DNA of 35,514 nt, from positions 1 to 35,514 of the forward strand of contig OMJE01000017.1 of NCBI GenBank assembly GCA_900299275.1. The letters are read 5' to 3'. The notes under the pieces were generated by a model. It was not told the origin of the DNA, made no database searches, and saw only the letters and a list, made by a program, of their open reading frames with translations. The stretch is from a bacterium. GTDB lineage: Bacteria > Patescibacteriota > Minisyncoccia > Phycocordibacterales > Phycocordibacteraceae. Both the position numbers and the translations under genes were made by a program. Below, piece by piece: positions 7,455-23,293 of this stretch; position 1 is the first letter of the stretch; each line of letters begins with the position of its first letter.

Positions 7455-7542
7455 TTACTTAAGCACTTCTACCCACGCATACTTTTCTGCTGAAAAGTTG
7501 CGCGGGCCCGCCTCGGGCCGCCGCCCTCCGGCTTGTGGAAGT
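7455..7542 (-). repeat. Structured interspersed element, copy A (rplK 3' end)
   Basis: Core gccggagggcggcggcccgaggcggg..acttttcagcagaaaagt; 7455-7472 matches rplK end 7543-7560 at 16/18; 7535-7542 is the inverse of 7553-7560. Confidence 0.85.
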
Positions 7543-7965
7543 TTATTTAAGCACTTCCACGCCCATTGAACGTGCCGTTCCCGCAATCGTGCGTGCAGCT
7601 GCTTCTGCAGATGCAGCATTCATGTCGGGCATCTTCTCCTTCACAATGTCCTCGATCTGCTTCATCGTGATCTTGCCCACCTTCTGACTTGGCGTCTTGC
7701 CTGATCCCTTTTCAATGCCGAGCGCCTTCAAAATGAGGCGCGATGCCGGTGGATTCTTCAAGATGAACGTAAAGGTGCGGTCATCGTATACCGAGAGCTC
7801 TACAGGGATGATCATGCCGCGCTTATCCTTTGTTGCCTCGTTGAACTGGGTCACAAATTGACCAATGTTCACGCCAGCAGGACCAAGTGCGGTACCAACC
7901 GGAGGTGCCGGCGTTGCTGCGCCGCCGGGAATCTGGAGTTTTATTTTTTTCGTTACGGTTGCCAT
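7543..7965 (-). CDS. rplK: 50S ribosomal protein L11
   Basis: [33 protein letters not shown]. Confidence 0.98.
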
Positions 7966-8006
7966 ATGACTGTGTGAGGATACCTTACTATCGCTAAATT
8001 GCCAAA

Positions 8007-8645
8007 TCAGAGCTTGCGCACCTGAAGGAAGTCGAGTTCGACCGGCGTCTCGCGGCCAAACATCGAAACCATGACCTTTACCTTGCCGCGATCCTCATCG
8101 ATCTCACCCACCTTACCTTCAAGATCTTTGAATGGCCCGTCGACGATCGCCACAGGATCATCCTTTACGAGGTCAATGCGGTGCTTCGGTGCCTCTGCGT
8201 GCATACGCTTCATAAGCGACGACACTTCGCTCTCTTCCATAGGCACCGGCGTATTCCCTGCCCCTACGAAGCCGGTGACGCGTGGCGTATTGCGCACTAC
8301 AAACCACGAGTCGTCGTCCACGATCATGCGCACAAGGACGTATCCAGGGTAAATCTTTTCCTCTTCCACAATGCGCTTGCCGCCCTTCACGCGAATCTTC
8401 TTTTCCGTCGGCACGATCACATCGAAGATTTTGTTCTCCATGCCCAAAGACTCAATGCGCTGCTTTAAGTTGCGCTCAACCGCATTTTCATACCCTGCAT
8501 AGGTATGAATGGTGTACCAACGCGCGTCCTCCTTATTGTAGGTCGTGTCGTCAATGACTTCCTTGCGCACCACGGGCGCAATGTCTGCCATCCCGTCCTC
8601 GCCGGTCTCTTCCTGATCTATCTTCTGCTCCGTGTCTTCATTCAT
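8007..8645 (-). CDS. nusG: Transcription factor NusG with an acidic N-terminal extension
   Basis: [30 protein letters not shown] motif, [15 protein letters not shown]. Confidence 0.97.
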
Positions 8646-8658
8646 AGTCAAAAAATGA

Positions 8659-8844
8659 TTACGCGCCGATCATGTAGCCGATAATCGCCCGAAGCACTGC
8701 ATCCACACTACCCACAAGTACGGTGATGATAGCAGCAATAGCTACAACCACGAGCGTGTGCGCGATGGCCTTATGGCGTGAGGGCCACACAATGTGAACA
8801 AATTCCGCGCGAACATGCTTTATATACGAAGTGAGTGCGTTCAT
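8659..8844 (-). CDS. secE: Preprotein translocase subunit SecE
   Basis: AEFVHIVWPSR plus one TM helix; directly upstream of nusG. Confidence 0.9.
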   Translation of the reverse strand: MNALTSYIKHVRAEFVHIVWPSRHKAIAHTLVVVAIAAIITVLVGSVDAVLRAIIGYMIGA

Positions 8845-8894
8845 AGGCAAAGTGACTGGTAAATAAAAAAGCCCCGCGGGCTTTCATACCCAAT

Positions 8895-8923
8895 AGGATA
8901 GTACAGGCACAGGCACCCGTCAA
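8895..8923 (-). promoter_or_regulatory. Sigma70-type promoter of secE-nusG-rplK
   Basis: TTGACG-17 nt-TATCCT on the minus strand. Confidence 0.55.
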
Positions 8924-8932
8924 GTACGGGCG

Positions 8933-9733
8933 CTAGCGAATTTCGTAGGTGATCGAGACAGACGCTGAGTAGGTGTTTTCTCCGGCAGGCACAACAGGAG
9001 CGGACTCAGCTTTTGCTTCGCGCATGACCCCTCCCATAGCATAGGCAACAGGATACGGTGTGCCGCTTACATTTTCACTAAAGTTGATGATCTTCACGAG
9101 ACGCACGCCAAGCTCTGCCGAAAGTTCCTTCGCTTGTGCTTTTGCCTTCTCTATCGCCACAGCACGCGCGGCGCTTTGGCCGGCACTTTCATCCTCAAGC
9201 CCGAAGTTTGGTCCCGACACATTCTGTACATTCAGCTTTCCAAGACCGGACAGAATACTACTGACCTTTGTGAGATCGCGAACTTTTAGTTCAATTGTTT
9301 GAGAGACATCATAGCCCGTAATGCGCGAATCCGGCATCGGACATGCGCCACCAGGAAGACACGCCTGTGTATACGTTGCGTAGTGAGGCGTGATGGCATA
9401 GGACGTGGTGCGAATGTCTTTCTCTGCAATACCCGATGTCTTCAGGAAAGCGATCGTATCATTGGTTTGCTTTGTCGTTTCTTCCTGAGCGTCGGACACC
9501 GCTGGCTTGGTATGGAAAATCGTTACCACGAGCCGCGCCACATCGGGCTTCACCGTCGCTTCTCCCTGCCCCGTTACCGTAATAACGTCAGTGGCAGGAT
9601 TCTGCGTTCTCCCGAATCCATTAAAGGTTGCAAATGTTGATACCAAAAGAAAAAGAGCGAGACAGCCAAGGACGGCAACGAACGCTCTGCGGATACCCGT
9701 ATCGGAAACGAACCCATCAAAAAAGTTTTGCAT
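8933..9733 (-). CDS. SIMPL (DUF541/BP26) domain protein
   Basis: ITVTGQGEATVKPDVA, DIRTTSYAITPHY, AIEKAKAQAKELS, VSITYEI; N-terminal TM helix. Confidence 0.9.
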   Translation of the reverse strand: MQNFFDGFVSDTGIRRAFVAVLGCLALFLLVSTFATFNGFGRTQNPATDVITVTGQGEATVKPDVARLVVTIFHTKPAVSDAQEETTKQTNDTIAFLKTSGIAEKDIRTTSYAITPHYATYTQACLPGGACPMPDSRITGYDVSQTIELKVRDLTKVSSILSGLGKLNVQNVSGPNFGLEDESAGQSAARAVAIEKAKAQAKELSAELGVRLVKIINFSENVSGTPYPVAYAMGGVMREAKAESAPVVPAGENTYSASVSITYEIR

Positions 9734-9767
9734 ATAATGTGACGTTACTATCGCCAGTATATCACCG

Positions 9768-10409
9768 CTACTCTGATGCAAGTGTGGCAAGCATTGTGCG
9801 CATTGCTTTCTGAGCCGGCAGTTCGGAAATATTTATAGCGCTGTTCGTACCATCAATGCCGTAGTCTGTCGCATCAAAACGCAGGACGTCAGCTGGACGA
9901 GCCAGGTAGTACGCAACCGTTACCTTTGTCGATGAACGTTCAATGGTGACGGCTGCAAATCGGTACGTTTGCCCCAGCGCAAGTGAGGTGAAATCTGCAG
10001 GACTCACCCGCTCACTCGACGTTCCGCGCATTGCCGTGGCGTGCATAATGTCTACGGCCGTGCTACTTGCCGCAATGGGATAACTACGCACCACCCACTC
10101 TGATCTTTGTTCTGTTGTTGTGGCCGCCGCTCCGTAACGTGCAAGCTCACCCTTTGCTGCGCTTTCTTCCACAAATCCAAACGGCAACGCAAACACTACG
10201 TGTGCCGCGTCGAGTGTCACATTAGGGGGTGCACAGCGTGGAAAATCACATGAATCAGGCGCATGCGCGACCTGACTACCATCTGGACAAGCGCGACTCT
10301 CTACCGGGCATGAGAGCGTATGGGTACGTTCATCAACGCTGATGCGGTACGCAAGACCGCCACCAATGACGAGGAGTAATAAAAATATGATAAACAAGGC
10401 TCGCTTCAT
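9768..10409 (-). CDS. Membrane-anchored hypothetical protein with a Cys-rich CPDGS module
   Basis: N-terminal hydrophobic helix; CPVESRACPDGSQV...CDFPRC. Confidence 0.8.
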   Translation of the reverse strand: MKRALFIIFLLLLVIGGGLAYRISVDERTHTLSCPVESRACPDGSQVAHAPDSCDFPRCAPPNVTLDAAHVVFALPFGFVEESAAKGELARYGAAATTTEQRSEWVVRSYPIAASSTAVDIMHATAMRGTSSERVSPADFTSLALGQTYRFAAVTIERSSTKVTVAYYLARPADVLRFDATDYGIDGTNSAINISELPAQKAMRTMLATLASE

Positions 10410-10451
10410 ATGTCTCCTATCCTAGCACTTGAGCCACGAACGCACGTTCTA

Positions 10452-10621
10452 GGGCGACGTGTGGGGCTCGGTCACAAGTCGTTTTCTGCTGAAAACGCTC
10501 GCGATCCTTACAGGATCTGTACACCTTTCGCATTTAGCAATGCTCAAGGTCTTGCGCTTGGGTCCCTACCCAAGCTCACCCGCCTCGGAGCCAAGCTGCT
10601 CCGGCCTTCGAGCCCCACACG
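10452..10621 (-). repeat. Structured interspersed element, copy B (tRNA-His 3' end), with expanded core
   Basis: 10452-10470 is identical to tRNA 10650-10668; 10607-10621 is an inverted copy of the tRNA T-arm/acceptor; core gccggagc..ccgaggcggg..cgttttcagcagaaaacg..tgtgacc. Confidence 0.85.
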
Positions 10622-10624
10622 AAT

Positions 10625-10646
10625 AAAAACTGCTCACGCAGTTTTT
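10625..10646 (-). terminator. Terminator-like hairpin after tRNA-His
   Basis: aaaaactgc-tcac-gcagttttt. Confidence 0.6.
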
Positions 10647-10647
10647 C

Positions 10648-10724
10648 TGGGGCGACGTGTGGGGCTCGAACCCACGACCGCTGGTACCACAAACCAGAGC
10701 TCTACCAACTGAGCTAACGCCGCC
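10648..10724 (-). tRNA. tRNA-His(GTG)
   Basis: Cloverleaf; anticodon arm CTGGT-TTGTGGT-ACCAG; G-1, C73 and CCA encoded. Confidence 0.95.
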
Positions 10725-10776
10725 ATGATGCCCCGAAGGGCTTCTTAAATTTTATACCACAATACTCAGAAAATGC

Positions 10777-11310
10777 TTAGTATTTTGGATTTTCTTCGCT
10801 TACCCCTGCGAGATGGTTTGCAAGCCGCGCGAGCGCAAAGAGGAGCGAGGAGAGACGATTCATATATGCACGCGCATCTGGCGTGAGGCCACGTAGACCA
10901 ACGTCGGACACTGCCACTAGGCGGCGCTCGGCACGGCGCGCGAGCGTTCGGCACACATCGAGCAGCGCTGAAAGCTCGGTACCACCCGCTATTGAGAATC
11001 CCTTGAGCGGTGGTATCTCTTTTTCGATCGCGTTAATCATATCTTCAACGGCGATAAGGTCTGTGTGCGTTACGTGTTTGTCTGCCCCTGCGAGCTCAGC
11101 CTGCACAATAAACAGTTTCTCCTGGGCTGTGCGCACGGCATCCTGGATACGCTTCTCATGCGAAGCTCGCACTTTTGCGTACCCCAGAAACGCATTGAGT
11201 TCATCAAGTGCACCAAGCGCCTCAGGTATCTCTGATGACTTTGAGATACGCTGTTGGTCGCAGCCAAATAATTGCGTAGTCCCCCCGTCGCCTTTGCCTG
11301 TGTAGAGCAT
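10777..11310 (-). CDS. ATP:cob(I)alamin adenosyltransferase, PduO type
   Basis: LYTGKGDGGTT, GALDELNAFLG, CRTLARRAERR, YMNRLSSLLFALAR. Confidence 0.93.
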   Translation of the reverse strand: MLYTGKGDGGTTQLFGCDQQRISKSSEIPEALGALDELNAFLGYAKVRASHEKRIQDAVRTAQEKLFIVQAELAGADKHVTHTDLIAVEDMINAIEKEIPPLKGFSIAGGTELSALLDVCRTLARRAERRLVAVSDVGLRGLTPDARAYMNRLSSLLFALARLANHLAGVSEENPKY

Positions 11311-11313
11311 AGA

Positions 11314-11778
11314 TTATGATCGTTCGTACGTACCAATAAGACTTGCTTCTGCAAGTACATGTCCTTGCATCGCCTGCATCACCAGTGGCTTCGCTGATCC
11401 GCGCGGCACAGCAAGCTCGACATCAAGGGCAAAAAGTCGAAACACGTAGCGATGACGCGTCGGTACGTGTTCAGGCGGCGGACAAGGCGGTGCGTAGACC
11501 GGGACGCCGCGCGTATTGTTCCCTGCCATACCGACGGTACTGCCTTCTTTGATACCGGTCGTCGAAGGTGAGATATTGAAAAGGATCCAATGATCAAACA
11601 TTTGATCTGACCGAATAGCATTTGGCACGTCGGGATCCTCCACAATAAGTACAAGTGACACTGCGTTCTCAGGCACATCGGAAAACACAAGTGGTGGCGA
11701 CACAGGTTGTTCAGCGTCACACGTGTAGCGCATTGGGATCGACTCGCCTTCTGCAAATGCGGCACTCGAAAGATTCAT
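11314..11778 (-). CDS. YbhB/YbcL (PEBP/RKIP-like) family protein
   Basis: SPPL, LIVEDPDVP, FDHWILFNI, YAPPCPP, HRYVFRLFALD; start reset to ATG 11778. Confidence 0.92.
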   Translation of the reverse strand: MNLSSAAFAEGESIPMRYTCDAEQPVSPPLVFSDVPENAVSLVLIVEDPDVPNAIRSDQMFDHWILFNISPSTTGIKEGSTVGMAGNNTRGVPVYAPPCPPPEHVPTRHRYVFRLFALDVELAVPRGSAKPLVMQAMQGHVLAEASLIGTYERS

Positions 11779-11800
11779 ACAAGACCAGTATATCGCGTAA

Positions 11801-11835
11801 AAGAAAAAGGGACGATGCCTCCGCCATCGTCCCTT
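11801..11835 (-). terminator. Terminator of the DnaA-like gene
   Basis: aagggacgatg / catcgtccctt stem plus a T-run on the minus strand. Confidence 0.7.
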
Positions 11836-11851
11836 CCTTTCTGTTCTCAGA

Positions 11852-12574
11852 TCATCGTGCCGCAGATGATGCGGGGTGCATGCCGCACCGTTTGCGCACA
11901 GCCTGTTCCGCAACCTGCAGCTTCTTCGCGAAGTCCTCATCTTCCTCCATACGAAGGATGGTGCGACGTTCGGCTCGAATGATCGTGGTGTGGTCGTTAA
12001 AGTTGTCGAACGCATCAGCAAGCTTCGGGTACGACAGTCCCGTAAGCTTACGGGCCAGATACGCCGTGGCTTGCCGGGGCCACAGTTTATGGCGGTCGCG
12101 CGTCGAACTCATCATCTCTTCCACGGACAACCCGAACGTTCCTGCGACCATCTCGATGACGACGGGGACGATGTCCAATTTCGCATTGTCCTCGTCCATT
12201 GCAATGTCCTCTGCTATTGAAGGGAGCTCGGCCCAGGACTCCCGTCCGGGAACGGGCGCGCGATCCAACTGGAGAACGAGAGCCTTGAATGTGCGGCGCC
12301 AGCCGCGTTCCTGCAAGGAACTCGCTTCAACGGACAATCCCACGCGCGCCGGAATCTCCCCACCCGCAATCTCACGCAAGAGGGCGCCGTATCTACGACG
12401 CACCGCGTCATAAAAATACGCGAACGGTACTACGAGCCGAAGCTCTCCTTGCGTACCAAGCTCGGGTTCGAGTGGCCACAGCCACGTTTCGAACTCACGC
12501 TCCGGCACCATCTGCCACAATTTCTGCAGCACACGGATCCATTCATGTTCGATATCGTGTTTTCGAGTGTCCAC
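11852..12574 (-). CDS. DnaA-like protein with domains I and IV only (no AAA+ domain)
   Basis: N-term FETWLWPL..ELRLVVPFAYFYDAVRRRY; C-term VAGTFGLSVEEMMS.TR..WPRQATAYLARKLTGLSYPKLADAF..DHTTII; no Walker A; AAGGAG SD. Confidence 0.85.
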   Translation of the reverse strand: MDTRKHDIEHEWIRVLQKLWQMVPEREFETWLWPLEPELGTQGELRLVVPFAYFYDAVRRRYGALLREIAGGEIPARVGLSVEASSLQERGWRRTFKALVLQLDRAPVPGRESWAELPSIAEDIAMDEDNAKLDIVPVVIEMVAGTFGLSVEEMMSSTRDRHKLWPRQATAYLARKLTGLSYPKLADAFDNFNDHTTIIRAERRTILRMEEDEDFAKKLQVAEQAVRKRCGMHPASSAAR

Positions 12575-12659
12575 TCTTTACTCCTTGTCGAGAACCACAT
12601 GATTTCGTATCCGGCCAGAGTGTACCAAACGAGCGGCGCTCGCGCTAGCAAGAACGAAC

Positions 12660-12839
12660 CTAGGCCTTGCGCGTAAGCCAACCTGCGGCCAAGAGTACCG
12701 CCGCAACAAGGTTTACGATGGCGTGCCCCATCATTTGATCTGGTGTCACGCCACCCATGAGCATGTAGATATGCGTGCCGAAGACAACGATGAGACCGAG
12801 CATGTAAAGCCACCAACTGAGTTTGTTATTTGCGTACAT
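12660..12839 (-). CDS. Small two-TM membrane protein, 59 aa
   Basis: MYANNKLSWWLYMLGLIVVFGTHIYMLMGGVTPDQMMGHAIVNLVAAVLLAAGWLTRKA; below the ORF-track length cutoff. Confidence 0.7.
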   Translation of the reverse strand: MYANNKLSWWLYMLGLIVVFGTHIYMLMGGVTPDQMMGHAIVNLVAAVLLAAGWLTRKA

Positions 12840-12929
12840 AGAATGAAATTATTTTGGTATACAAAAAGAGTAGCATGGCAAGCACCTCCTCTCTTTGAAT
12901 AGTTGTATGAAGCGCGGCGGACAAAAAGC

Positions 12930-12953
12930 AAAAAACTCCCTTTCGGGAGTTTT
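12930..12953 (-). terminator. Terminator after tRNA-Leu(GAG)
   Basis: aaaactccc-tttc-gggagtttt. Confidence 0.7.
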
Positions 12954-12955
12954 CA

Positions 12956-13043
12956 TGGTGCCCAGGAGAGGACTCGAACCTCCATGCCCTTAACGGGCGC
13001 TACCACCTCAAGGTAGTACGTCTACCAATTTCGCCACCTGGGC
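12956..13043 (-). tRNA. tRNA-Leu(GAG)
   Basis: CTACC-TTGAGGT-GGTAG; long variable arm; CCA encoded. Confidence 0.95.
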
Positions 13044-13105
13044 ATATTCGTGCCGAAGCACGTAGGTACTATACGAGATACACGAGGAATACTCAATCCC
13101 GCTTG

Positions 13106-13570
13106 CTAGGCAGCAACAGCGTCAGCCTCAACCGGGGCTTCGGTTTCCTCGACCGGGAGGGTCTCATCGCTCTTTACGTTCATCATGCGCGCATTGCGGA
13201 GCTGGCGACGCATTTCCTTAGCAGCCTTCTCGCGGATGAAGTAAAGCTTTGCGCGGCGGACCTTGGAGCGCTTTACGATTTCAATAGAGTCAATCAAAGG
13301 CGTGTAAAGCGGGAACACCTTCTCGACACCCACTCCCGAGAGTGTGGCACGAACTGTGAACGTGGCCCCGGCTTCTGTGCCGTGCTTTACTGCAATAACG
13401 AGTCCTTCAAAGACCTGCTTGCGGGCATTCTTGATCGTTTTCTCCTTCTTGTCTGCGCCCTTACCTTTCTTGAGCTCAATAATATTTTGCGTCACACGAA
13501 CCGTATCGCCCGGGCGAATGCCGAGCGCTGCGCGTCCCTCTGCGTTGACGGGGGTAAGTACCTTTGCCAT
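13106..13570 (-). CDS. rplS: 50S ribosomal protein L19
   Basis: IRPGDTVRV, QVFEGLVIA, GVGVEKVFPL, KVRRAKLYFIR. Confidence 0.97.
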   Translation of the reverse strand: MAKVLTPVNAEGRAALGIRPGDTVRVTQNIIELKKGKGADKKEKTIKNARKQVFEGLVIAVKHGTEAGATFTVRATLSGVGVEKVFPLYTPLIDSIEIVKRSKVRRAKLYFIREKAAKEMRRQLRNARMMNVKSDETLPVEETEAPVEADAVAA

Positions 13571-13649
13571 GTTCCGCGCACTGTAGCATGCAAATGAAAA
13601 GAGGGCAAATATAGGCCCTCCTGCCCCGCCACCAGGCCCTGGTGGTACG

Positions 13650-13680
13650 AAAAACCCCGCGCTTGGTAAGCGCGGGGTTT
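13650..13680 (-). terminator. Terminator of ORF 13700-14185
   Basis: aaaccccgcgctt / aagcgcggggttt. Confidence 0.75.
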
Positions 13681-13699
13681 ATAACTTCGTGTCCAAACG

Positions 13700-14185
13700 T
13701 CACACGGCCGGACGCACGACCAAGAAGCGCGTTCGCTCAAACCAGCACAAGGATGTCTGCTGCACACCCACGCTGGGCCTGTCACCTCCTAAGTAGCTAC
13801 ATGCGTAGTACTGATCCGAAAAAATGCGCGCTGATTGACCAAGGGCTGCGATAGGATAGAGGACATTTACTTCGTTTACGCTGGCTGCATCCGCAAGCAG
13901 ATGGTCGAGCTTCGCAAAGCGCCACGGACGGTGAACGTCCTCACGCTGAATGACCTGCCTCATCTCCGGGTAGAGCACCCGACGATTCGCGACCAGATAC
14001 ATGGCAGAATACCGCACACATCCCCGCTCTTCTGATACGAAGTAGGCCGGACTGATGTGCCGATTGACCCAGCCATACCAGCATGACGCCAGGCGACTAG
14101 GAAACGGCGCACCATGATCGACTACGAGCTCGAACGGTTTACTCATAGTGACGATGAGCGGCCGAGGACGCTCGATAACTGGCAT
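13700..14185 (-). CDS. Hypothetical protein, 161 aa
   Basis: AAGGAGGT SD 7 nt before ATG 14185; motifs YGWVN..IS...F, LDHLLA, YPIAALG, RFLVVR resemble an uncharacterised Parcubacteria family (from recall, unverified). Confidence 0.75.
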   Translation of the reverse strand: MPVIERPRPLIVTMSKPFELVVDHGAPFPSRLASCWYGWVNRHISPAYFVSEERGCVRYSAMYLVANRRVLYPEMRQVIQREDVHRPWRFAKLDHLLADAASVNEVNVLYPIAALGQSARIFSDQYYACSYLGGDRPSVGVQQTSLCWFERTRFLVVRPAV

Positions 14186-14249
14186 AACCTGCACCTCCTT
14201 TGTGCTGAAGTTTTTGGAAAAAGAGCTTGACCCTGCTCGCTATGCTACC

Positions 14250-14939: not shown

Positions 14940-14943
14940 TATG

Positions 14944-15016
14944 TGCGCGCTGTAGGACTCGAACCTACGACCATCCCGGTGTAAACGGGGCGCTCTACCA
15001 ACTGAGCTAAGCGCGC
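14944..15016 (-). tRNA. tRNA-Val(TAC)
   Basis: Cloverleaf with loop TTTACAC; CCA not encoded. Confidence 0.93.
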
Positions 15017-15162
15017 GTACCTATATATTTACCACGTTCTAGAACTTAGTGAAGCGCAAGCCGTTTATTATTACCTCTGCACACCAATGCTAAACGCACA
15101 TATTCGCACTGCTCCCTGCCGCTTCCAGATCGCCCAACCTTCTCGTCACTTCCCACTTCCGG

Positions 15163-15244
15163 TGGGCATGGGGAGACTCGAACTCCCAACCCTTACGGGA
15201 TACGCTTCTGAGACGTACGCGTATACCAATTCCGCCACATGCCC
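15163..15244 (-). tRNA. tRNA-Leu(CAG)
   Basis: TACGT-CTCAGAA-GCGTA; variable arm present. Confidence 0.93.
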
Positions 15245-15707: not shown

Positions 15708-15718
15708 ATGGCTAGATA

Positions 15719-16228: not shown

Positions 16229-16758
16229 GACTTTAAGGTGAGCGTCAGTGTAAATGGCAGATCTGACTCCTTTGCGTATGCCGACACTGGCAACTGCACA
16301 GTTGCCACTTTAGGAAGGGCCTGAAGATTCTTTACGAAAGCAGCGAGCTGTTCTCGTGTTCGCGCCTTACCTGAAACCTGGACACGTTGAGGGACGCCTT
16401 GCAGAGAATATTCAAATTTTGTGATTATGATTCCCTCTCGTGGGACACTAGTCAATTCACGAAGGAACGGGCTCGCGAGCTCTGCGGTCTGCAGCGTTTC
16501 TAGTATGCTGCCCCCTGTCACTTCCTGAGTACCTGAAGCTGCGGTGGCTTGATCTGGAGAGAGGCCCAGTTGTGCAAGCTCTCTCACGGCAGCGTCATAT
16601 GCTGAGCGCGTTTGCATTTGGCTGGGGAGCAAGAAAGTACCGCCCAACACAACGCATACACTAAGCAGCACGAGACTAACATTTGCAACGCGCACCCGAT
16701 ATGCGTGACGCCGCAGTCGCACACGTTCTTCTGGCAGTAAATTGAGCACGTTACTCAT
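16225..16758 (-). CDS. pilN: PilN-like pilus assembly protein
   Basis: N-terminal LNLLP motif, TM helix, VSGKARTREQLAAFVKNL; ATGA overlap with pilM. Confidence 0.75.
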   Translation of the reverse strand: MSNVLNLLPEERVRLRRHAYRVRVANVSLVLLSVCVVLGGTFLLPSQMQTRSAYDAAVRELAQLGLSPDQATAASGTQEVTGGSILETLQTAELASPFLRELTSVPREGIIITKFEYSLQGVPQRVQVSGKARTREQLAAFVKNLQALPKVATVQLPVSAYAKESDLPFTLTLTLKS

Positions 16759-17834
16759 GGCAGGTAATCGCGCAGCGCGAGTCCAATAGGCGTCGCAAAC
16801 GCCAGTGCTTCGGTATACAAAATATCCGGCACCCACACCTCGTGTGACGCAAAGTTCGCAAACACATCCCCGGTTGCTGTTGGTACGCCGAGCGACTTTT
16901 CAAGATATTCAGCAAGACCACGCAGGCTTCCATTGCCTCCCAGCAAAATAACCTTCGTGATGGGCTTATGCCGTCCTCCCGGCGTTGCTTTACTCTGCCA
17001 GTAATTTAAATGGGCCAAAATTTCGTCTCGAATCGCCGATACAGTGGTCAACATAGCCTCAAGACACTCCTCATTGCCCAACATTGGCGCTATACCCTTT
17101 TCAACATTTAATTTCTTTGCCTCTGACTCCGGCACGCCAAAATATTTTTGTAGTGACAGCGTAATCGCATGTCCGCCGATACCAATCGTGGTAGCAAATC
17201 GAACAATGTTTGCTTCTACAATCACTATTTTTGTTGTGAGACGACCAATGTCAACAAGGAGGCTGGTTCCTGAATCGTGTGGTTTTACCGTTGCTCGTGC
17301 CATCGCAAAACTCTCGGCATCGAGAGCTACAACGTCAACCATTGCTGCGTCAAACACGGCAAGCAATTCGTCAATCACACGGCGCGCGAATCCAACTCCA
17401 ACCACCCAGGAATCATTTTTTTGACCTTGTTCAGCAAGTACGATGTCAAACGACGCCGACGCCGGAGGCAGCGGGACAAACTCATCGAGATGCTGCTCTA
17501 CGCTGATGCGCCACTGTCGCTTAGTATCCCCTGTTGTTGCGGTCTCGAATAGATACGATTTTGACTCGGGCAATGCAACGTATGCAGAGGATATGTTCAC
17601 CTTTCGCGCGACAGAAGCAATAGTTTTTGCCACGGCAACCACATCGGCCACATCCCCGTCAACAAACGCGCCTTCGGGCATGGGTTCTGCTGCGTGCGCC
17701 GCAAGAACAATGCCATCCTTGTGCTGCGCGAGTCGCACTGCCTTGACACTGCTCGTCGACAGATCGATGCCGCCCGTCATTGGTGCAAGATAATGCGGCG
17801 GCGGAAAAATACGCGATGATGCTCGCAGTGACAT
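16755..17834 (-). CDS. pilM: Type IV pilus assembly protein PilM (actin-like)
   Basis: GIDLSTSSVKAV, LVDIGRLTT, IGGHAIT, ILLGGNGSL.GL, PIGLALR. Confidence 0.9.
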   Translation of the reverse strand: MSLRASSRIFPPPHYLAPMTGGIDLSTSSVKAVRLAQHKDGIVLAAHAAEPMPEGAFVDGDVADVVAVAKTIASVARKVNISSAYVALPESKSYLFETATTGDTKRQWRISVEQHLDEFVPLPPASASFDIVLAEQGQKNDSWVVGVGFARRVIDELLAVFDAAMVDVVALDAESFAMARATVKPHDSGTSLLVDIGRLTTKIVIVEANIVRFATTIGIGGHAITLSLQKYFGVPESEAKKLNVEKGIAPMLGNEECLEAMLTTVSAIRDEILAHLNYWQSKATPGGRHKPITKVILLGGNGSLRGLAEYLEKSLGVPTATGDVFANFASHEVWVPDILYTEALAFATPIGLALRDYLP

Positions 17835-17874
17835 GCTTGCAGTATAACGCGACACCTTCGCGTCGTCTGTGGGA

Positions 17875-18219
17875 TTAATGTGCACTAGTCCCCGGCGGCA
17901 CGACTCGGTCCGGAGTAAGAAATGCGAACGTCTCATTTGAACCCACGGCAAACAGCATACCGTTACTCTCAAGACCCTTGATCATTCGAGGTTCGAGATT
18001 TGTCACGAAGCATAACTGACGCCCCACAAGTGACGATGGTTCGGGCACGTACGCGGCAATACCTGAAACGATCTGTCGCGGTCCTCCCTCTTCACCAAAA
18101 TCGACCATGAGCCGGAGAAGCTTATCCGTCTCTGGTACGCGTTCCGCACTCTGCACCGTGCCTACAGAAACTTCTATGTTACTAAACTCGTCGATTGAGA
18201 TACGTGGCTTCCCGGTCAT
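17875..18219 (-). CDS. tRNA-binding OB-fold protein (MetRS C-terminal/Trbp111/CsaA family)
   Basis: DKLLRLMVDFG, RQIVSGIA, NLEPRMIKGLESNGM. Confidence 0.9.
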   Translation of the reverse strand: MTGKPRISIDEFSNIEVSVGTVQSAERVPETDKLLRLMVDFGEEGGPRQIVSGIAAYVPEPSSLVGRQLCFVTNLEPRMIKGLESNGMLFAVGSNETFAFLTPDRVVPPGTSAH

Positions 18220-18623
18220 AATGTTCGTGAAAGATAATTAGTAAGTATGAGGGCGGCGGCTGAAGCGTCAACGGGCTCATGCCGCGCGGGTGACCGCGTC
18301 TTCTCCATTTTGCCTGGCGCCTGACGCGCAGCTTCAGTAGTAAAGACTTCCGATTCGTAATACACCGGAAGGTTCGTGCGCGAGGCGAGAGCGTCGCCAA
18401 ACGCGTGCGCCTCGCGTGCAATTGGATTTTGCTCCCCGGAAAGTGCGAGCGATTCGCCAATCACCACAGCACCCACACCCTCCTTTTCTATGAGGGCGAG
18501 TACCGTAGCGAGGGCAGCGGGCGTACTCGCAATGATGCCATGCGGAAAGCCCATCGTTCCCAACTCATCGGAGAGGGCGAGACCTATTTTTTTACTGCCG
18601 TAATCGATACCAAGATGCCGCAT
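18216..18623 (-). CDS. ruvX: YqgF/RuvX family nuclease
   Basis: LGIDYGSKKIGLALSD, E.FTT, VDASAAALIL. Confidence 0.93.
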   Translation of the reverse strand: MRHLGIDYGSKKIGLALSDELGTMGFPHGIIASTPAALATVLALIEKEGVGAVVIGESLALSGEQNPIAREAHAFGDALASRTNLPVYYESEVFTTEAARQAPGKMEKTRSPARHEPVDASAAALILTNYLSRTL

Positions 18624-18736
18624 ATGCTTTAGTGTATAGCACAATCGCTTCTGTCTGTATCAACTGCGCCACCTTCCCGCTCTTCCCACCACCTGCGCAA
18701 TACGGTAAGCTCAAAGACACGGGAGTAATAATCCTT

Positions 18737-18823
18737 GGAGGAGTGGCAGAGCGGTCTAATGCACCGGTCTTGAAAACCGGAGTCCTGGCAACGGGACCGT
18801 GAGTTCGAATCTCACCTCCTCCG
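18737..18823 (+). tRNA. tRNA-Ser(TGA)
   Basis: CCGGT-CTTGAAA-ACCGG; long variable arm; G73. Confidence 0.95.
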
Positions 18824-18893
18824 CATTTTCATTGTGCTTTTTTGCACAAACATATATAAGGTGCGGGAAAAAATTCTGCTACTATGAGCCTAT

Positions 18894-19367
18894 ATGGCTC
18901 ACCCCGTACTGATTGAGTGGCGTGGACACGAATATAATCCGACTCCCAAAGGTGCTGACTGGTATTGGGCGCTGGGTATCGTTGCGGCAGCCAGCACCAT
19001 CGCCGCGCTCCTCTTCCAGAATTATCTGCTTGCGCTTCTCATCCTGGTTGCATCGACAACACTCGCGCTGAGTGCCGCAAAACAGCCCTCACTCCACACC
19101 TTCCAGCTCAATTCGCATGGACTTGTTATTGGTTCGGACCTCTATCCATATGAAAAAATGCATTCGTTTTCGGTACTCGAAGATGTTGAGGGGCGCCTCC
19201 CCATTCTGCTCTCCATAAAGAATGACAGCTGGATTTCCCCACACCTCATGATTCCACTCAACGACGTAGACGTTGATGCTGTGTACTTGCATTTCTTGGA
19301 GCGCGTGCACGAAACTAACCATCGGCACAGCTTGCCTCATGTCGTGAGTGCCTTTCTCGGTTTTTGA
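18894..19367 (+). CDS. Conserved hypothetical membrane protein (2 TM plus possible PH-like domain)
   Basis: W...EY...K..DWYW, two TM helices, YPYEKMHSFSV. Confidence 0.8.
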   Translation: MAHPVLIEWRGHEYNPTPKGADWYWALGIVAAASTIAALLFQNYLLALLILVASTTLALSAAKQPSLHTFQLNSHGLVIGSDLYPYEKMHSFSVLEDVEGRLPILLSIKNDSWISPHLMIPLNDVDVDAVYLHFLERVHETNHRHSLPHVVSAFLGF

Positions 19368-19424
19368 TAAAATCGCAAAAACGCGGTACAGTGCTTCTAG
19401 CTCGCAAGTTTCTTGCGTGCAATC

Positions 19425-19496
19425 GCTCTCGTCGTTCAATGGATAGGACGCCAGCTTGCGGAGCTGGCAATGCAGGTTCGATTCCTGCCGAGAGCA
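19425..19496 (+). tRNA. tRNA-Arg(GCG)
   Basis: CCAGC-TTGCGGA-GCTGG. Confidence 0.92.
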
Positions 19497-19497
19497 C

Positions 19498-19719
19498 ATG
19501 AAAGTACATTTCAAACACCATTTAAGACACTTTATGGAAAATGTGCCCGTGGCACTTGGCATTATCCTTATCTGGCGTGGTATTTGGGTGGCACTCGACT
19601 TTCTCGATCAGTGGCTTTGCAGCGGCAACCACATTATTACTGCAGGTATTGGAATTATCTTGGGCTTCACCCTGCTCTATTATTCGGATGAGGGCCTGAA
19701 GTCGCTCGAGCGGCTCTAG
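19498..19719 (+). CDS. Small two-TM membrane protein, 73 aa
   Basis: GIILIWRGIWVALD, two hydrophobic helices; lies between two tRNA-Arg genes; alternative start at ATG 19534. Confidence 0.75.
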   Translation: MKVHFKHHLRHFMENVPVALGIILIWRGIWVALDFLDQWLCSGNHIITAGIGIILGFTLLYYSDEGLKSLERL

Positions 19720-19730
19720 GTGGACATTGC

Positions 19731-19802
19731 GCTCTCGTCGTTCAATGGATAGGACATCTCCCTCCGAAGGAGAAAATGCAGGTTCGATTCCTACCGAGAG
19801 CA
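19731..19802 (+). tRNA. tRNA-Arg(CCG)
   Basis: TCTCC-CTCCGAA-GGAGA. Confidence 0.92.
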
Positions 19803-19806
19803 CATA

Positions 19807-19838
19807 AATCAAGAGACCCCTTTCGGGGTCTTTTGATT
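19807..19838. terminator. Bidirectional terminator between tRNA-Arg and rpsT
   Basis: aatcaagagaccc / gggtcttttgatt. Confidence 0.7.
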
Positions 19839-20104
19839 TATGCCTGAGCCTTCTTGATCGCTGCCGCAAGTCGTGACTTCTTGCGAGCGGCCGTATTGGC
19901 CTTGATCACACCGCGCTTCTTTGCTTTATCGATTGCCTTGAAAGCCGTAGAGAGGAGCTCCTCTGCCTTCTTAGCATCCTTTGCGGTTACCGCCTGGCGG
20001 ACCGCCTTCGTTGACTTATAAAGGTCTGCCTTGCGGCGGGCATTGAAAACACGCTTCCGTCCCGAGGAGCGAATCGCCTTTTTTGCTGAGCTGGTTATTG
20101 CCAT
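19838..20104 (-). CDS. rpsT: 30S ribosomal protein S20
   Basis: SAKKAIR, AIDKAKKRGVIKANTAARKKSRL. Confidence 0.97.
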   Translation of the reverse strand: MAITSSAKKAIRSSGRKRVFNARRKADLYKSTKAVRQAVTAKDAKKAEELLSTAFKAIDKAKKRGVIKANTAARKKSRLAAAIKKAQA

Positions 20105-20162
20105 ATGTACCCTATATATACGCTATCTCCCGCGAAGTGGCAAATGGTTGTACCATAGATGT

Positions 20163-20708
20163 ATGATTCGCCAGATCCGCGGCACGGTCACAAGTCAGGA
20201 TGCCTTCTCCGCTGTCATCGATGTGCACGGTCTTGGTTTTGAGGTACGAAGCGCCACTCCTCTTTCAGTCGGCATCGGTGAAGAGGTCACCATCGCCACA
20301 CACCTTGCCATAAAGCAAGACGGGGTCGAACTCTATGGTTTCCCCACCGAAGACGATCGAGATTTCTTTGAGCTCATACTTTCCGTGCCGGGCATTGGCC
20401 CAAAAACAGCGCTCAACGTGCTCCGCCGCGCTCCCCGCGAAGCCCTGCATGGCGCTCTTGCTGCACGCGACCTCACCTACCTCACCAAGGTGGTGGGCCT
20501 CGGAAAAAAGAGCGCTGAAAAAATGATCCTCGAGCTTGCTGACAAAGTTGGCGAACGCACGCACGACGATCAAGACGCCGAAGTATTCGACACGCTTGTG
20601 GCACTTGGCTATACAGAGCGCGAAGCGCGCAAGGCGATTCAAGGCATTCCCGCCACCGTCGTGGGCAAAGACGCCCGCCTCAAGGCCTCCCTTTCTGCTC
20701 GACCATGA
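20163..20708 (+). CDS. ruvA: Holliday junction branch migration protein RuvA
   Basis: MIRQIRG, DVHGLGFEV, LYGF, VPGIGPKTAL, LVALGY. Confidence 0.95.
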   Translation: MIRQIRGTVTSQDAFSAVIDVHGLGFEVRSATPLSVGIGEEVTIATHLAIKQDGVELYGFPTEDDRDFFELILSVPGIGPKTALNVLRRAPREALHGALAARDLTYLTKVVGLGKKSAEKMILELADKVGERTHDDQDAEVFDTLVALGYTEREARKAIQGIPATVVGKDARLKASLSARP

Positions 20709-21949
20709 GAAACTTGCGCCGAACCATTCTCCAGCCCTATCACTATCTACTCGCTGCGTACGCGCTCGTGCGCTACGGAATGCCAGCACGAAAAATGACC
20801 GTCATTGGCGTGACCGGCACGAAAGGCAAATCATCGGTGTCTGAAATGCTCTACACCATCCTTATGAAGGCTGGCCACAAAACGGCACTCGCTGGAACAA
20901 TCCGTTTTGCAATCGGCGAGGAGTCGGAACCAAATCGATTCAAGATGACCCTTCCTGGCCGCGGATACATTCAGAAGTTCCTCGCGCGCGCCATGAAGAA
21001 GGGCGCCACATTTGCCGTCATTGAGATCACGAGTGAGGCTGCGCGCCAGTATCGCAATCTTGGCCTTTTTTTGGATGCGCTTATTTTTACGAATCTGCAA
21101 AAAGAGCACCTCGAGTCGCACGGCTCTTTTGAAAATTATTTCCGCGCCAAGTTCGCCATCGGCAAATCGCTTGCGCGCTCGCCGAAGCGACCACGTGCGA
21201 TTATTGCAAACGCCGATGATGAGCGCGGTCCTGCTTTTTTGGCTCTGCCGGTCGAGCGTCACATTCCTTTCGGAGCTCACGACATCCAGATCACCCACCA
21301 AGATCACAAAAGTATTTCCTTCACCTACAAAGGTACCGACTTCCACATTCCGCACCCCGGCACCTTTTCAGCCCTCAATGCCCTCTCCGCCATAAAGGCT
21401 GCTGAAAATTTCGGCGTCCCGCTCTCCGTATGTGCAGAGGCTCTAGGATCGCTTGAGACGATATCGGGACGACTTGAGCGCATCGACGTGGGTCAAGACT
21501 TTCTCGCCATTGTTGATTATGCGCATACACCCGATTCCTTAAAGGCACTTTACGAAGCGTTCCCGGGCAAGAAAAAAATCTGCGTGCTCGGCAACACGGG
21601 CGGTGGCCGCGACACCTGGAAGCGACCCGAGATGGGCAAGATCGCAGAAGCCCACTGCGACCACGTTATTCTGACGAACGAAGATCCGTACGATGAAGAT
21701 CCTAAAAAGATCATCGACGAGATGGCTAGTGGTATGACCAAAAAGCCCGAGATCGAACTCGATCGCCGCACCGCCATCCGCCACGCACTTGCCCGCGCGC
21801 AAACAGGTGACGTCGTGCTTATTAGCGGCAAAGGCGCCGATCCATGCATCATGGGTCCAAAAGGCTCGCGCGAGCCGTGGAGCGATGCGGCCGTTGTACG
21901 TGAAGAATTGACAGCACTCACTCGGGAGAAAGAGCACGAGGCGGTATGA
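20705..21949 (+). CDS. murE: MurE-like Mur ligase
   Basis: GVTGTKGKSS, FTNLQKEHL..H, GRLE, VDYAHTPDSL, TNEDPY.ED, ISGKG. Confidence 0.88.
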   Translation: MRNLRRTILQPYHYLLAAYALVRYGMPARKMTVIGVTGTKGKSSVSEMLYTILMKAGHKTALAGTIRFAIGEESEPNRFKMTLPGRGYIQKFLARAMKKGATFAVIEITSEAARQYRNLGLFLDALIFTNLQKEHLESHGSFENYFRAKFAIGKSLARSPKRPRAIIANADDERGPAFLALPVERHIPFGAHDIQITHQDHKSISFTYKGTDFHIPHPGTFSALNALSAIKAAENFGVPLSVCAEALGSLETISGRLERIDVGQDFLAIVDYAHTPDSLKALYEAFPGKKKICVLGNTGGGRDTWKRPEMGKIAEAHCDHVILTNEDPYDEDPKKIIDEMASGMTKKPEIELDRRTAIRHALARAQTGDVVLISGKGADPCIMGPKGSREPWSDAAVVREELTALTREKEHEAV

Positions 21950-21956
21950 TACAGCT

Positions 21957-22883
21957 ATGAAGGATGTACACGATGCCTGGTTCTTCGCCGGACTTTTTGC
22001 TTTCGTTTTCCTGGTGTGGTTAGCAACGGGAGGCCAGTCGCGCCCCCTTGCCTGGTCGGGCCCAACACTTGCGCAGCCAAACGAGCTTGGTGGCGGCACG
22101 TATTTGCAACTGCCCCGTGCACCATTTGGCATCGGCAACCGCAGCACAAATCTTGGGGGTTCCTATGGCCAAGGTGAATCTCCGCTCAAAGGCATTGCCT
22201 TCGGGTCTCCTTCTCCATCTTCGGGCTCCGTACAGCTTCGTCCTAATGTGAACAACGCCAGCTCAACGTATGCGCAAAACGAATATCTGATTCTCTCGGT
22301 TCCAACTACAAACAAAGCCGTGACTATTTCCGGCTGGTACCTCACAAGCGAAATTACGGGCAAGGCCGGTCTCATACCTAAGGGAACCAGCGTTCCGACA
22401 ACAGGCATCGTCAATGCACAAAAGCCAATCGTCCTTAACCCTGGACAAATAGCGCTTATATTTACAGGACGTTCGCCCATTGGCACCTCATTCCAAGAAA
22501 ACAAGTGCAGTGCCTACCTGCAGAGTTTTCAGAATTTTACACCCTCGTTTTATGGCAACTGCCCCGACCCCCTCGATGAACTCATTGCATTCTATGGCCC
22601 CTACTACGCACGCGACACGAGCTGCGTAGACTACATAAAAAAACTACCGAGCTGCGAGACAGTACTCTTCCCTCCCGACGATCTCTCTTCGACCTGCACC
22701 GCTTTTGTAAAGAAACACTTCAACTACAACGGATGCATCAACACACACTACAAAGACGCCGACTTCCTTGGTAATACATGGCGCGTCTACCTTGGCCTTA
22801 ATGACAGTATGTGGCGCGCTCGAAATGAAGTTGTTAAACTGCTCGACGCAAACAAGCGCACGATCGACGCCTTTGCCTACTAG
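21957..22883 (+). CDS. Membrane-anchored Cys-rich hypothetical protein (possible lamin-tail-like domain)
   Basis: N-terminal TM; NEYLIL, ISGWYL, SFQENKC, NYNGC, VKLLDA...ID. Confidence 0.8.
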   Translation: MKDVHDAWFFAGLFAFVFLVWLATGGQSRPLAWSGPTLAQPNELGGGTYLQLPRAPFGIGNRSTNLGGSYGQGESPLKGIAFGSPSPSSGSVQLRPNVNNASSTYAQNEYLILSVPTTNKAVTISGWYLTSEITGKAGLIPKGTSVPTTGIVNAQKPIVLNPGQIALIFTGRSPIGTSFQENKCSAYLQSFQNFTPSFYGNCPDPLDELIAFYGPYYARDTSCVDYIKKLPSCETVLFPPDDLSSTCTAFVKKHFNYNGCINTHYKDADFLGNTWRVYLGLNDSMWRARNEVVKLLDANKRTIDAFAY

Positions 22884-22917
22884 AAAAAATGCCGCGTAAG
22901 TGCTAGTTTTTATCTAG

Positions 22918-22997
22918 CGCGCCCATATCTTCTCGGACTCGATATGGACGTTCGTTCGGTGAACAAACATCCGAGGCGGTTCTTGTTACCTCACTTC
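22918..22997 (+). repeat. Possible divergent element copy at the tRNA-Lys 5' end
   Basis: cgcgcccatatct (22918-22930) matches 22997-23009 at 12/13; gatatggacg (22941-22950) is its near-inverse; ccgaggcgg at 22971. Confidence 0.5.
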
Positions 22998-23070
22998 GCG
23001 CCCATAGCTCAGTCGGTAGAGCAACTCCCTTTTAAGGAGTGGGTCCCTGGTTCGAGCCCAGGTGGGCGCA
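22998..23070 (+). tRNA. tRNA-Lys(TTT)
   Basis: ACTCC-CTTTTAA-GGAGT; CCA not encoded. Confidence 0.95.
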
Positions 23071-23089
23071 CAAAGCGAATGCGTGGAGT

Positions 23090-23167
23090 TTTGTGCGAGC
23101 CGGAGGGCGACGGCCCGAGGCGGGGTCGCGGAAATTTTCAGCAGAAAATTATCTGTGACCACGAAAG
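23090..23167 (+). repeat. Structured interspersed element, copy C (tRNA-Lys 3' end)
   Basis: tttgtgcg is the inverse of cgcacaaa (23067-23074); core agccggagggcgacggcccgaggcggggtcgcggaaattttcagcagaaaattatctgtgacc. Confidence 0.85.
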
Positions 23168-23194
23168 AAAAAGAGCACCTGCGTGCTCTTTTTT
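23168..23194. terminator. Terminator hairpin between copies C and D
   Basis: aaaaagagcac-ctgc-gtgctcttttt. Confidence 0.75.
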
Positions 23195-23195
23195 G

Positions 23196-23293
23196 TTTGG
23201 TGCGAGCCGCAGCGATGTTTTGCCAGCAGGCAAAACCGCGAGGCAGGATCGCGAAAACTTGCGAGTGACGACGAGCAAATTATTTGTGATCAC
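23196..23293 (+). repeat. Structured interspersed element, copy D
   Basis: gtgcgagccgcagcg..gttttgcc-agca-ggcaaaac.cgcgaggcaggatcgcg...tttgtgatcac. Confidence 0.75.

Follow-up and report, generated by a model that had tools for sequence, protein, structure and literature searches.

Integrative elements that target tRNA and tmRNA genes, the tycheposons among them, reportedly duplicate the 3' end of the tRNA gene as attL and attR. Such islands carry an integrase gene inside and have one attachment-site (att) specificity per element lineage, while the attP of CTX-phi and the attC of integrons depend on a known recombinase and a single fixed site (dif or attI). We analysed a 35,514-nt stretch of contig OMJE01000017.1 (assembly GCA_900299275.1), here called the window, from a Patescibacteria genome labelled G000 that is 93.65% complete. 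In this window related structured cores stand behind rplK, tRNA-His and tRNA-Lys, always on the strand of the gene, one behind each of the first two and two behind tRNA-Lys, as determined with ARAGORN, Rfam and reading of the sequence. The 3' end of the host gene (T) is followed by an inverted copy of itself (T') before the core and by a direct copy (T2) after it. The core is a strand-specific three-way-junction element, 62 nt long in its short form and about 86 nt in its long form, with variants to about 140 nt. We see an even chance that this family is a non-autonomous insertion element, of which the core alone would be mobile; fold-back or template switching would attach it to the two strands of a staggered target end.

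Patescibacteria have tiny genomes with very few recognisable mobile elements; this element is abundant and conserved and has an exact insertion signature. It points either to a novel way of inserting DNA by host functions alone or to a new class of tRNA-linked RNA. In practice the element breaks assemblies at tRNA genes and can mislead the annotation of tRNAs and attachment sites in metagenome-assembled genomes (MAGs), and the two covariance models built here (R1 and R2) offer a marker for tracking it.

Comparison with described systems

The element has single features of several known systems and fails a defining test of each. Like miniature inverted-repeat transposable elements (MITEs) and other non-autonomous elements derived from insertion sequences (IS), it is short, lacks an open reading frame (ORF), is repeated in variable copy number, breaks assemblies and has flanks with a target duplication. 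It has, however, no fixed terminal inverted repeats, the inverted pair T'/T2 being target sequence and locus-specific, and its duplication of about 7-36 nt has a fixed start and not a fixed length. It is also 100% sense, with a body that is a covarying strand-specific fold and with no cognate transposase in the families searched.

A direct repeat from the T-loop, or from near the 3' end, through the end of the tRNA, the use of tmRNA and the presence of arrays of partial tRNA ends are shared with tRNA-integrating islands. In contrast to these, the element is only 62-140 nt long, has no integrase, carries an extra inverted copy abutting its body and occupies at least 29 tRNA hosts with matching flanks. 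A first-pass annotation of the window had set the element apart from both IS/MITE target duplication and integrase att duplication. Both distinctions hold, the first because fixed terminal inverted repeats and a fixed duplication length are absent and the second because there is no integrase and the hosts comprise 29 anticodons, although the direct repeat is alike.

The order target, inverted arm, body, target, a strand-specific dependence on a hairpin and tandem arrays are common to the element, CTX-phi attP and integron attC, but the arms of the element are locus-specific and its T' has 2 target-complementary nt outside the duplicated block. Template switching at quasipalindromes and fold-back inversions also produce an inverted copy by way of a hairpin and extend a palindrome into a gene end; those events lack a conserved 62-nt cargo and exact junctions. 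Retron non-coding RNAs are likewise structured RNAs closed by flanking inverted repeats, whereas the element has no adjoining reverse transcriptase (RT), no RT match in G000 and no association with RT over 151 genomes. It differs from REP/BIME sequences with their RAYT in that its body is a three-way junction and not a simple palindrome, and G000 has no Y1_Tnp match. The IS110 bridge RNA and the tigRNA of TIGR systems (PMC12045711) resemble the element as structured RNAs with segments for both target strands. TIGR units are described as 8-12-nt repeats with 9-nt spacers (PMC12045711), an array format from which the element differs, and its own two segments are mutually complementary and overlapping. 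Neither a Nop nor a DEDD IS110 protein was found in five copy-rich genomes with the element.

Core fold and covariation

The core runs from a first GCC to a final GUGAC and has the motif GCCGGAG, a hairpin, GAGGCRGG and a second stem ending in GUGAC, with an AGCA loop. Its fold is closed by a variable stem P1, made of T' and T2, followed by a 3-bp GCC/GGC stem and an asymmetric GGA/GA loop leading to P2, and then by a GG linker and P3. P2 and P3 are each either short or long, and AGCA and GACG loops and a tandem G-A motif recur. Compared with shuffles, single-sequence folds of the window cores gave z scores of -4.9 to -6.4 for three and -2.8 for the fourth. A degenerate pattern made from the four cores matched 30 places in 16 of 41 related genomes against one for the reversed pattern. 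One pattern match (L005) was dropped as a false positive inside a coding sequence.

The short and long forms were modelled separately because MAFFT misaligned the tRNA-His copy; one alignment with misaligned and duplicate rows was not used. R1, the short-form covariance model, was built from 13 sequences (62 positions, 23 pairs) and R2, the long-form model, from 14 (86 positions, 31 pairs), with copies outside the seed alignment scoring 80-92 bits. In the long-form alignment 94.6% of cells were paired and 22 of the 31 pairs changed on both sides; none of 500 shuffles was as good, and slid controls gave 3-7. Among 50 copies of the short form 98.9% of cells were paired and 19 of 23 pairs changed on both sides, in an alignment that was fitted to the model and so favours the structure. 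One G.U pair in P3 was invariant, both in all 14 long-form rows and in all 49 short-form rows with letters on both sides. This pair would be a C-A mismatch on the opposite strand, and the fold therefore belongs to the sense strand only.

Searches against Rfam 15 at the gathering threshold returned only tRNAs over the whole window. At an E-value limit of 10 there was no match at the tRNA-His locus and a few weak core-touching matches, far below gathering scores, at rplK and tRNA-Lys. Self-cleaving ribozyme families (hammerhead, twister, pistol, hatchet, HDV-like) were absent from these relaxed matches at the three loci, and 13 further element loci gave tRNA, tmRNA and small-subunit rRNA only. 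No account of the element was found in the literature searched, judged on titles and abstract openings. The family, which had not been recognised as a named one at the outset, matched none in these searches.

A third core form was seen after tRNA-Ser(gct) (G000 contig C31) and tRNA-Tyr (C36); its P3 differs, and a further conserved 3' segment precedes T2. As R1 and R2 miss this form, the counts reported here are too low. The genome G017 also has three diverged mini-cores (52-54 nt) between protein genes, away from tRNAs (L148, ~22492-22545; L154, ~231280-231331; L159, ~469933-469985). Two of these have closing stems of their own (9 and 15 bp), and no upstream copy of the stem sequence was seen.

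The four copies in the window

Four cores with a common motif had been reported here by the first-pass annotation, together with the order T, inverted T, core, direct T at three loci. The model matches fell within 1-2 nt of these cores, only partially so at tRNA-His, and reading of the loci bore out the order, which is short and degenerate at tRNA-Lys as had been noted.

Behind rplK (7543-7965, minus; L11 by Pfam), T consists of the final codons and the stop codon of the L11 gene (7543-7560, minus). T' (7533-7542, minus) repeats part of T in inverted form over 8 nt (7535-7542) and ends in two joiner nucleotides (7533-7534); T pairs with T' in the minimum-free-energy fold. The core is the 62-nt short form (copy 1, 7471-7532, minus; R1 match of 85.4 bits; fold z = -5.7), and T2, a slightly decayed direct copy of T, overlaps its last base (7455-7471, minus) and is followed by a terminator hairpin at ~7404-7441. 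This core is an rplK-type variant with compensated changes in the outer P3 stem; the same variant stands behind rplK in G033 (L017), in L043 and in G085 (L146). In the G033 copy T and T' co-vary, and T, T' and T2 co-vary between G000, G033 and L043.

The tRNA-His gene (10648-10723, minus; ARAGORN and Rfam) is followed by a core with a large internal insertion. T (10645-10668, minus) comprises the 3' part of the tRNA from the T-loop on and ~4 nt of trailer. The interval 10606-10646 (minus) holds a spacer hairpin (~10625-10646), T' (10607-10621) and a 1-nt linker (10606), T' being an inverted copy of the tRNA from about position 54 on with 15 nt exact. The core (copy 2, 10470-10605, minus) was delimited by eye, since R1 matched it only in part (10470-10521); its P2 is short, and extra hairpins make up an internal insertion of ~75 nt between P2 and P3. 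This insertion is 91% identical over 89 nt to G232:C1:198220-198308, against a maximum of 75% for coding sequence in the same search. T2 (10447-10470, minus) is a direct copy from position 56 to the 3' end plus trailer, with a 19-nt exact block in common with the host, and it forms a 13-bp closing stem with T' (fold z = -6.4). A contig from an independent assembler covers 10179-10943 with zero differences, and the copy is therefore not an assembly artefact.

The tRNA-Lys(ttt) gene (22998-23071, plus; ARAGORN and Rfam) is followed by two copies. Lys1 (copy 3, 23099-23160, plus; R1 match of 90.8 bits) is a short form 27 nt past the tRNA. Upstream of it lie T, the end of the tRNA plus trailer (23066-23075), a loop (23076-23087), T' (23088-23097) and a 1-nt linker (23098), all on the plus strand. 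Its T2 (23160-23167, plus) is short and degenerate and is directly followed by a terminator-like hairpin (~23168-23194). Next comes the T' of Lys2 with a 1-nt linker (23195-23205, plus), an imperfect inverted copy of the tRNA-Lys end and trailer with 11 nt exact to T, so placed that the T/T' hairpin has the terminator hairpin at its apex. The Lys2 core (copy 4, 23206-23291, plus; R2 match of 100.1 bits) is an 86-nt long form and a member of the long-form alignment.

Flanks derived from the host locus

Flanks were compared between each copy and its own locus (90 cognate pairs) and between copies and foreign loci (450 non-cognate pairs). An exact match of T' to T of at least 10 nt was present in 45 of 90 cognate against 14 of 450 non-cognate pairs, and one of T2 to T in 30 against 12. 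Closing stems P1 of at least 8 bp were formed by 35 of the 90 cognate and 42 of the 450 non-cognate pairs. Of 55 tRNA-hosted copies, 48 had one or more flank relations of at least 8 nt. The proposal that the flanks derive from each host locus was thereby substantiated, and scanning related genomes with the covariance models, a check suggested by the same annotation, showed it to hold well beyond the window, together with a uniform orientation. The T' of many copies comprises T and its trailer in full, inverted and interrupted by a small hairpin, with the post-gene hairpin at the apex.

The inverted copy arrives together with the core. Of ten tRNA-His loci compared, only those of G000 and G024 carry a core, each of a different form; there the direct matches measure 19 nt and the inverted ones 15 and 11 nt. 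At the eight core-less loci, direct matches do not exceed 9 nt or inverted ones 8 nt. Within G000 an inverted copy of at least 10 nt was found downstream of 7 of 39 tRNAs, compared with one in the upstream control, and six of the seven carry a core.

The junction rule

The junctions between flanks and core follow a common rule. The linker between T' and the core was 1 nt in 38 of the 41 copies in which an exact 8-mer could be placed, T2 began at the last base of the model in 14 of 20 copies and, counted along the host sequence, the start of T2 lies 2 nt downstream of the end of T'. For tRNA hosts this places the end of T' near position 54 and the start of T2 in the T-loop at position 56, 19 nt before the end called by ARAGORN (13 of 20 copies). 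In a second class, with spacers of 25-31 nt, the break falls a few nt before the 3' end of the tRNA.

The offset was measured by comparing the ten bases from the last base of the core with the host, counting downstream of the leftmost base of T. Across 52 copies with an exact 8-nt T', an offset of +2 was best in 38, with a mean identity of 6.69/10 compared to 1.5-3.3 at other offsets. Matches of at least 8/10 numbered 21 at +2, three at +3 and none elsewhere. The +2 offset was the best in all three classes, with short spacers (7 of 9), with long spacers (22 of 29) and where no tRNA was found (9 of 14), and the rplK copies of G033 and G085 obey the rule by eye. It follows from the +2 offset that the two joiner bases beside the core are complementary to the host and not conserved.

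The exact duplicated block measures ~14 to at least 27 nt in recent tRNA-hosted copies; in L121 it reaches ~36 nt, and the short-spacer class has ~7 nt. The block starts at one fixed host position, while its right end varies, lying 0-13 nt past the tRNA in recent copies and further in L121. Judged from these sequences, the geometry looks like that of both strands of one target end with a 2-nt 3' overhang, each attached to the core with one extra base.

At one other rplK locus (L044:1006-1125, genome G388), an unrelated 87-nt insert of two hairpins was seen with the same T/T'/insert/T2 geometry, including the 2-nt offset. Given this insert, the insertion route may not be specific to the core described here; since the insert occurs only once in its genome, it is for now too little to count as a second family.

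Hosts and orientation

From 80 loci, 95 distinct copies were collected and their tRNA neighbourhoods examined to a cut-off of 700 nt. A tRNA lay within this distance of 63 copies, always on the same strand (56 upstream, six downstream in tRNA clusters and one overlapping an ARAGORN tmRNA call). No opposite-strand tRNA was found within 700 nt of any of the 95 copies, the only two known lying at 711 and 1007 nt, and the claim that the core is always sense to its host gene stood accordingly. The 32 copies without a tRNA within 700 nt include those at rplK and tmRNA, contig-edge cases and others. The hosts comprise 29 anticodons, tmRNA and a small number of protein genes, rplK among them. In G017, neighbouring copies on opposite strands each stand behind their own tRNA, which ties orientation to the host gene and not to the direction of replication.

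A hairpin with a T-run often lies between host gene and core. A scan of 7000-24000 for promoters and terminators listed no promoter-like site just upstream of any core, but it was uninformative, as the spacer hairpins were missing from its list too. The heptamer GCGAAGC, which we take to be an unusually stable DNA mini-hairpin, was seen in 13 of 90 upstream spacers (60 nt each), none of which contains its reverse complement, against a genome-wide expectation in G000 of ~0.008 per 60 nt; the heptamer is also found just upstream of the copy behind tmRNA in G000 contig C20. Hairpin loops of the sequence CCTGCG are likewise enriched in the spacers (15 of 90).

Distribution and copy number

R1 matches were found in 103 of 151 genomes of the Patescibacteria genus to which the window belongs, with 0-17 in each and none in 48; overall, copy number across congeners ranges from 0 to about 30 per genome. 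Five near-complete congeners in few contigs had no match with R1 or R2. The complete single-contig 993-kb genome G017 had 25 R1 and 29 R2 matches, which merged to ~34 places, many of them clustered. In G000 the models detected seven copies (rplK, tRNA-His, two at tRNA-Lys, tRNA-Asp, tRNA-Val-cac and tmRNA), and by eye a degenerate copy was recognised at tRNA-Gln-ttg in addition to the third core form at tRNA-Ser-gct and tRNA-Tyr. In a phylum-wide sample, 6 of 151 genomes carried the element, three of them in other classes, with the same architecture and with an encoded CCA included in T2. Of 150 listed R1 matches, at least 16 start less than 300 nt from a contig start, which is typical of assembly-breaking repeats.

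Viral contigs were also scanned. A loose pattern gave 120 stretches, with no R1 match among the 80 listed, and a stricter one gave a single stretch, a GC-rich coding sequence without a tRNA. Carriage by phage was therefore not found in these scans. Metagenome contigs scanned with the 26-nt flank of the tRNA-His copy gave no records.

Evidence on movement

Several observations suggest that the copies arose by insertion. At rplK the nearest RplK relatives (L039-L042 and L045) have empty sites, in which the stop codon is followed by the terminator, compared to the occupied sites in G000, G033, L043 and G085, and the orthologous tRNA-His sites are empty in other species. Different core forms occur between the same locus-specific flanks in arrays, as in Lys1/Lys2, in the four-copy array L151 and in the Gly-tcc and Ala arrays, and for this reason the core alone looks like the mobile unit. 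Across genomes the nearest core had the same host tRNA in 4 of 37 cases, with a shuffled mean of 1.8. One contig, from run X1, lacks Lys1: it joins 23071 to 23168 with six other letters between (skipping 23072-23167). The internal insertion of the tRNA-His core, at 91% identity to the G232 locus against at most 75% for coding sequence, points the same way. Two skip joints, 10692 to 14992 and 10718 to 15322, were ignored as they join tRNA genes and come from the conserved tRNAs of other organisms.

Other results weigh against movement or fit it poorly. The allele lacking Lys1 is a single contig of depth 6.7 with a 30-nt side, from a strain with six differences in tRNA-Lys. No filled/empty pair from near-identical strains was found, a DNA search with the tRNA-His locus over 222 congeners having shown the genus to be too diverged for close pairs. 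Copies at different loci of G017 are only 60-91% identical to their nearest neighbours, compared to 98% for tandem copies, and a recent burst is accordingly not in evidence. Between species, short cores share 82-100% identity where coding sequence reaches at most 75%; this conservation, together with the covariation, fits a selected functional RNA equally well, and the covariation shows long-term constraint on each lineage. In old copies (tmRNA in G000; rplK) T2 has decayed and T' is still complementary to T, a pattern which suggests, on the sequences compared, selection on T:T' pairing and not a passive scar. The flanks of the L151 array look tRNA-derived, yet no tRNA lies upstream. Among the pieces listed for run X5 and the RNA runs X6 and X8 (contigs), none crossed any core.

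The search for an enzyme told in the same direction. G000 had no match to RVT_1, TnpB zinc ribbon, Y1_Tnp, Transposase_20, DEDD_Tnp_IS110, Nop or Resolvase, DDE families lying outside this search. An RT was present in 62 of 151 congeners, and the element occurred in 42 of these 62 compared to 61 of the 89 without one. Of the 151, 96 had a serine recombinase; 62 of these carried the element, compared to 41 of the 55 without one, a tally that assumes the same 151 genomes in both scans. The co-occurrence with RT or HUH/RAYT genes that the first-pass annotation had suggested looking for thus failed to appear, RT showing no association over the 151 genomes and Y1_Tnp no match in G000. A single tyrosine recombinase is encoded in G000, and no integrase lies in or beside the copies. 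In G017 (C1:113846-115849; L134, L151) an RT gene (115250-115849, minus) is located ~770 nt upstream of the four-copy array, and the stretch directly ahead of that array is found again in front of the copy at ~838400-838723 (L166); the two may be the template/variable repeat pair of a diversity-generating retroelement, each with elements behind it.

The early proposal of a non-autonomous mobile element inserted by fold-back or template switch therefore stands in part. Copy number, empty sites, arrays and the junction rule support an insertional origin, the 60-91% identity between loci speaks against recent movement, and the strand switch is a step that we infer.

A possible insertion route

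If the element moves, a target end behind a gene would be broken, leaving a 2-nt 3' overhang. Fold-back or template-switch synthesis would then connect both strands of the broken end with the core, adding one nucleotide. This synthesis would often turn round at the hairpin that follows the host gene, which would explain why the duplicated stretch has a fixed start and a variable end. The insertion would leave T' in inverted and T2 in direct orientation, both copied from the target, and the junction rule is what strand switching at a staggered end would leave. An RNA or single-stranded DNA may have served as the intermediate. The rule predicts the structure of that intermediate and the sequence of every empty site.

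More tentatively, the family may represent an undescribed class of mobile element, in which a 62-nt structured RNA or a single-stranded copy of it is captured at a 2-nt staggered break downstream of tRNA and other heavily transcribed genes and sealed to both strands of the same end. If so, ultra-small Patescibacteria would possess a break-and-join or RNA-templated repair pathway that needs no element-encoded enzyme. In a bolder variant T' and T2 would act as a two-strand guide that opens the matching duplex.

Alternative explanations

The strongest competitor to insertion, though we consider it unlikely, is a functional small RNA or cis-acting module that is transcribed with, or processed from, the tRNA, tmRNA and rplK transcripts. 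The T':T2 stem and the alternative T:T' pairing would then be kept by selection and gene conversion, and the family would be old and mostly vertical, with frequent and precise deletion between the direct repeats T and T2. The strong covariation with its invariant G.U pair, the conservation of cores beyond that of coding sequence and across classes, and the continued folding of diverged copies within a genome all agree with such a role. So do the strictly sense orientation behind strongly expressed genes, the co-variation of T, T' and T2 between the three rplK loci, and the persistence of T' complementarity where T2 has decayed. A functional RNA accounts poorly, however, for the patchy presence described above, with 48 of 151 congeners lacking an R1 match, five near-complete ones without a match to either model and copy number spanning 0 to about 30. 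The host tRNAs vary from species to species, and one tRNA can be followed by different core forms. Selection on pairing does not explain why T2 extends past the part paired with T' into the acceptor strand, trailer and encoded CCA, and the two joiner nucleotides are complementary to the host without being conserved. A T-run hairpin often separates host gene and core, and no piece listed for X6 or X8 crosses a core.

It is improbable that the copies arose by Campbell-type integration of a circular or hairpin element of ~90-250 nt, with the folded T+T' hairpin as attachment site and a host recombinase or homologous recombination as the agent; they could alternatively, within this explanation, be eroded remains of integrase-borne islands. 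Integration of a folded circle would give the observed order of target, spacer, inverted arm, body and target, as for CTX-phi, and the direct repeat from the T-loop through the tRNA 3' end resembles classical tRNA attachment sites, with tmRNA also a target. Perfect tandem arrays, such as the 189-nt unit repeated at least four times in L157, the gene-sized stretch between tmRNA and one further copy in G017 and core-less repeats of a tRNA 3' end in G000 would be at home there too. The arms are the difficulty: T' has 2 extra nt complementary to the chromosome to the left of the T2 start, which a circle would not hold, and integration leaves unexplained how arms could be reset to match at least 29 tRNA identities and rplK, or how different cores came to be mixed between identical locus flanks. 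The lack of an integrase in or beside the copies, the single tyrosine recombinase of G000 and the lack of a true copy in viral contigs also count against it.

Although MAG assemblies often break at copies, an assembly artefact or chance resemblance is so improbable as to be negligible, since the family is present in more than 100 independent genomes, including the complete single-contig G017, an independent assembler's contig crosses the tRNA-His copy without differences, and chance is excluded by the covariation controls and by the reversed pattern (1 versus 30); the check for artefacts asked for at the outset was thereby answered. An L1/L11 autoregulatory mimic, C/D-box or H/ACA guides, a T-box, split or permuted tRNAs, an RNase P guide, known self-cleaving ribozymes and TnpB omega-RNA were dropped, as none covers all the hosts, the flanks or the absence of a partner protein.

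Neighbouring genes and further observations

The 30 larger ORFs of the window, compared with Pfam, were housekeeping genes or unmatched, with no transposase, integrase or reverse transcriptase among them, in agreement with the earlier statement that the window holds no mobilising enzyme. They include tRNA synthetases, SHMT, ThyX, NusG, RuvABX, Pol I, pilus genes and a PBP. The neighbour of rplK is thyX, not rplA, with a strong terminator in between (window 6511-7335).

Two further loci show tRNA ends arranged otherwise. On G000 contig C26 (~10082-10420), outside the window, the last ~30 nt of tRNA-Gly(ccc) recur twice more behind the gene in direct orientation, ~75 nt apart and each after a small hairpin, with no core and no inverted copy; this is another kind of tRNA-end repeat, possibly old attachment sites. 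In the region ~100 nt downstream of tRNA-His in L177 (G232), the 3' half of a different tRNA-His follows after ~20 nt, like an end displaced by an integrative element. Finally, the window ORF at 11852-12574 has only the N- and C-terminal domains of DnaA, without the AAA+ domain, and overlaps the adjoining PBP-family ORF.

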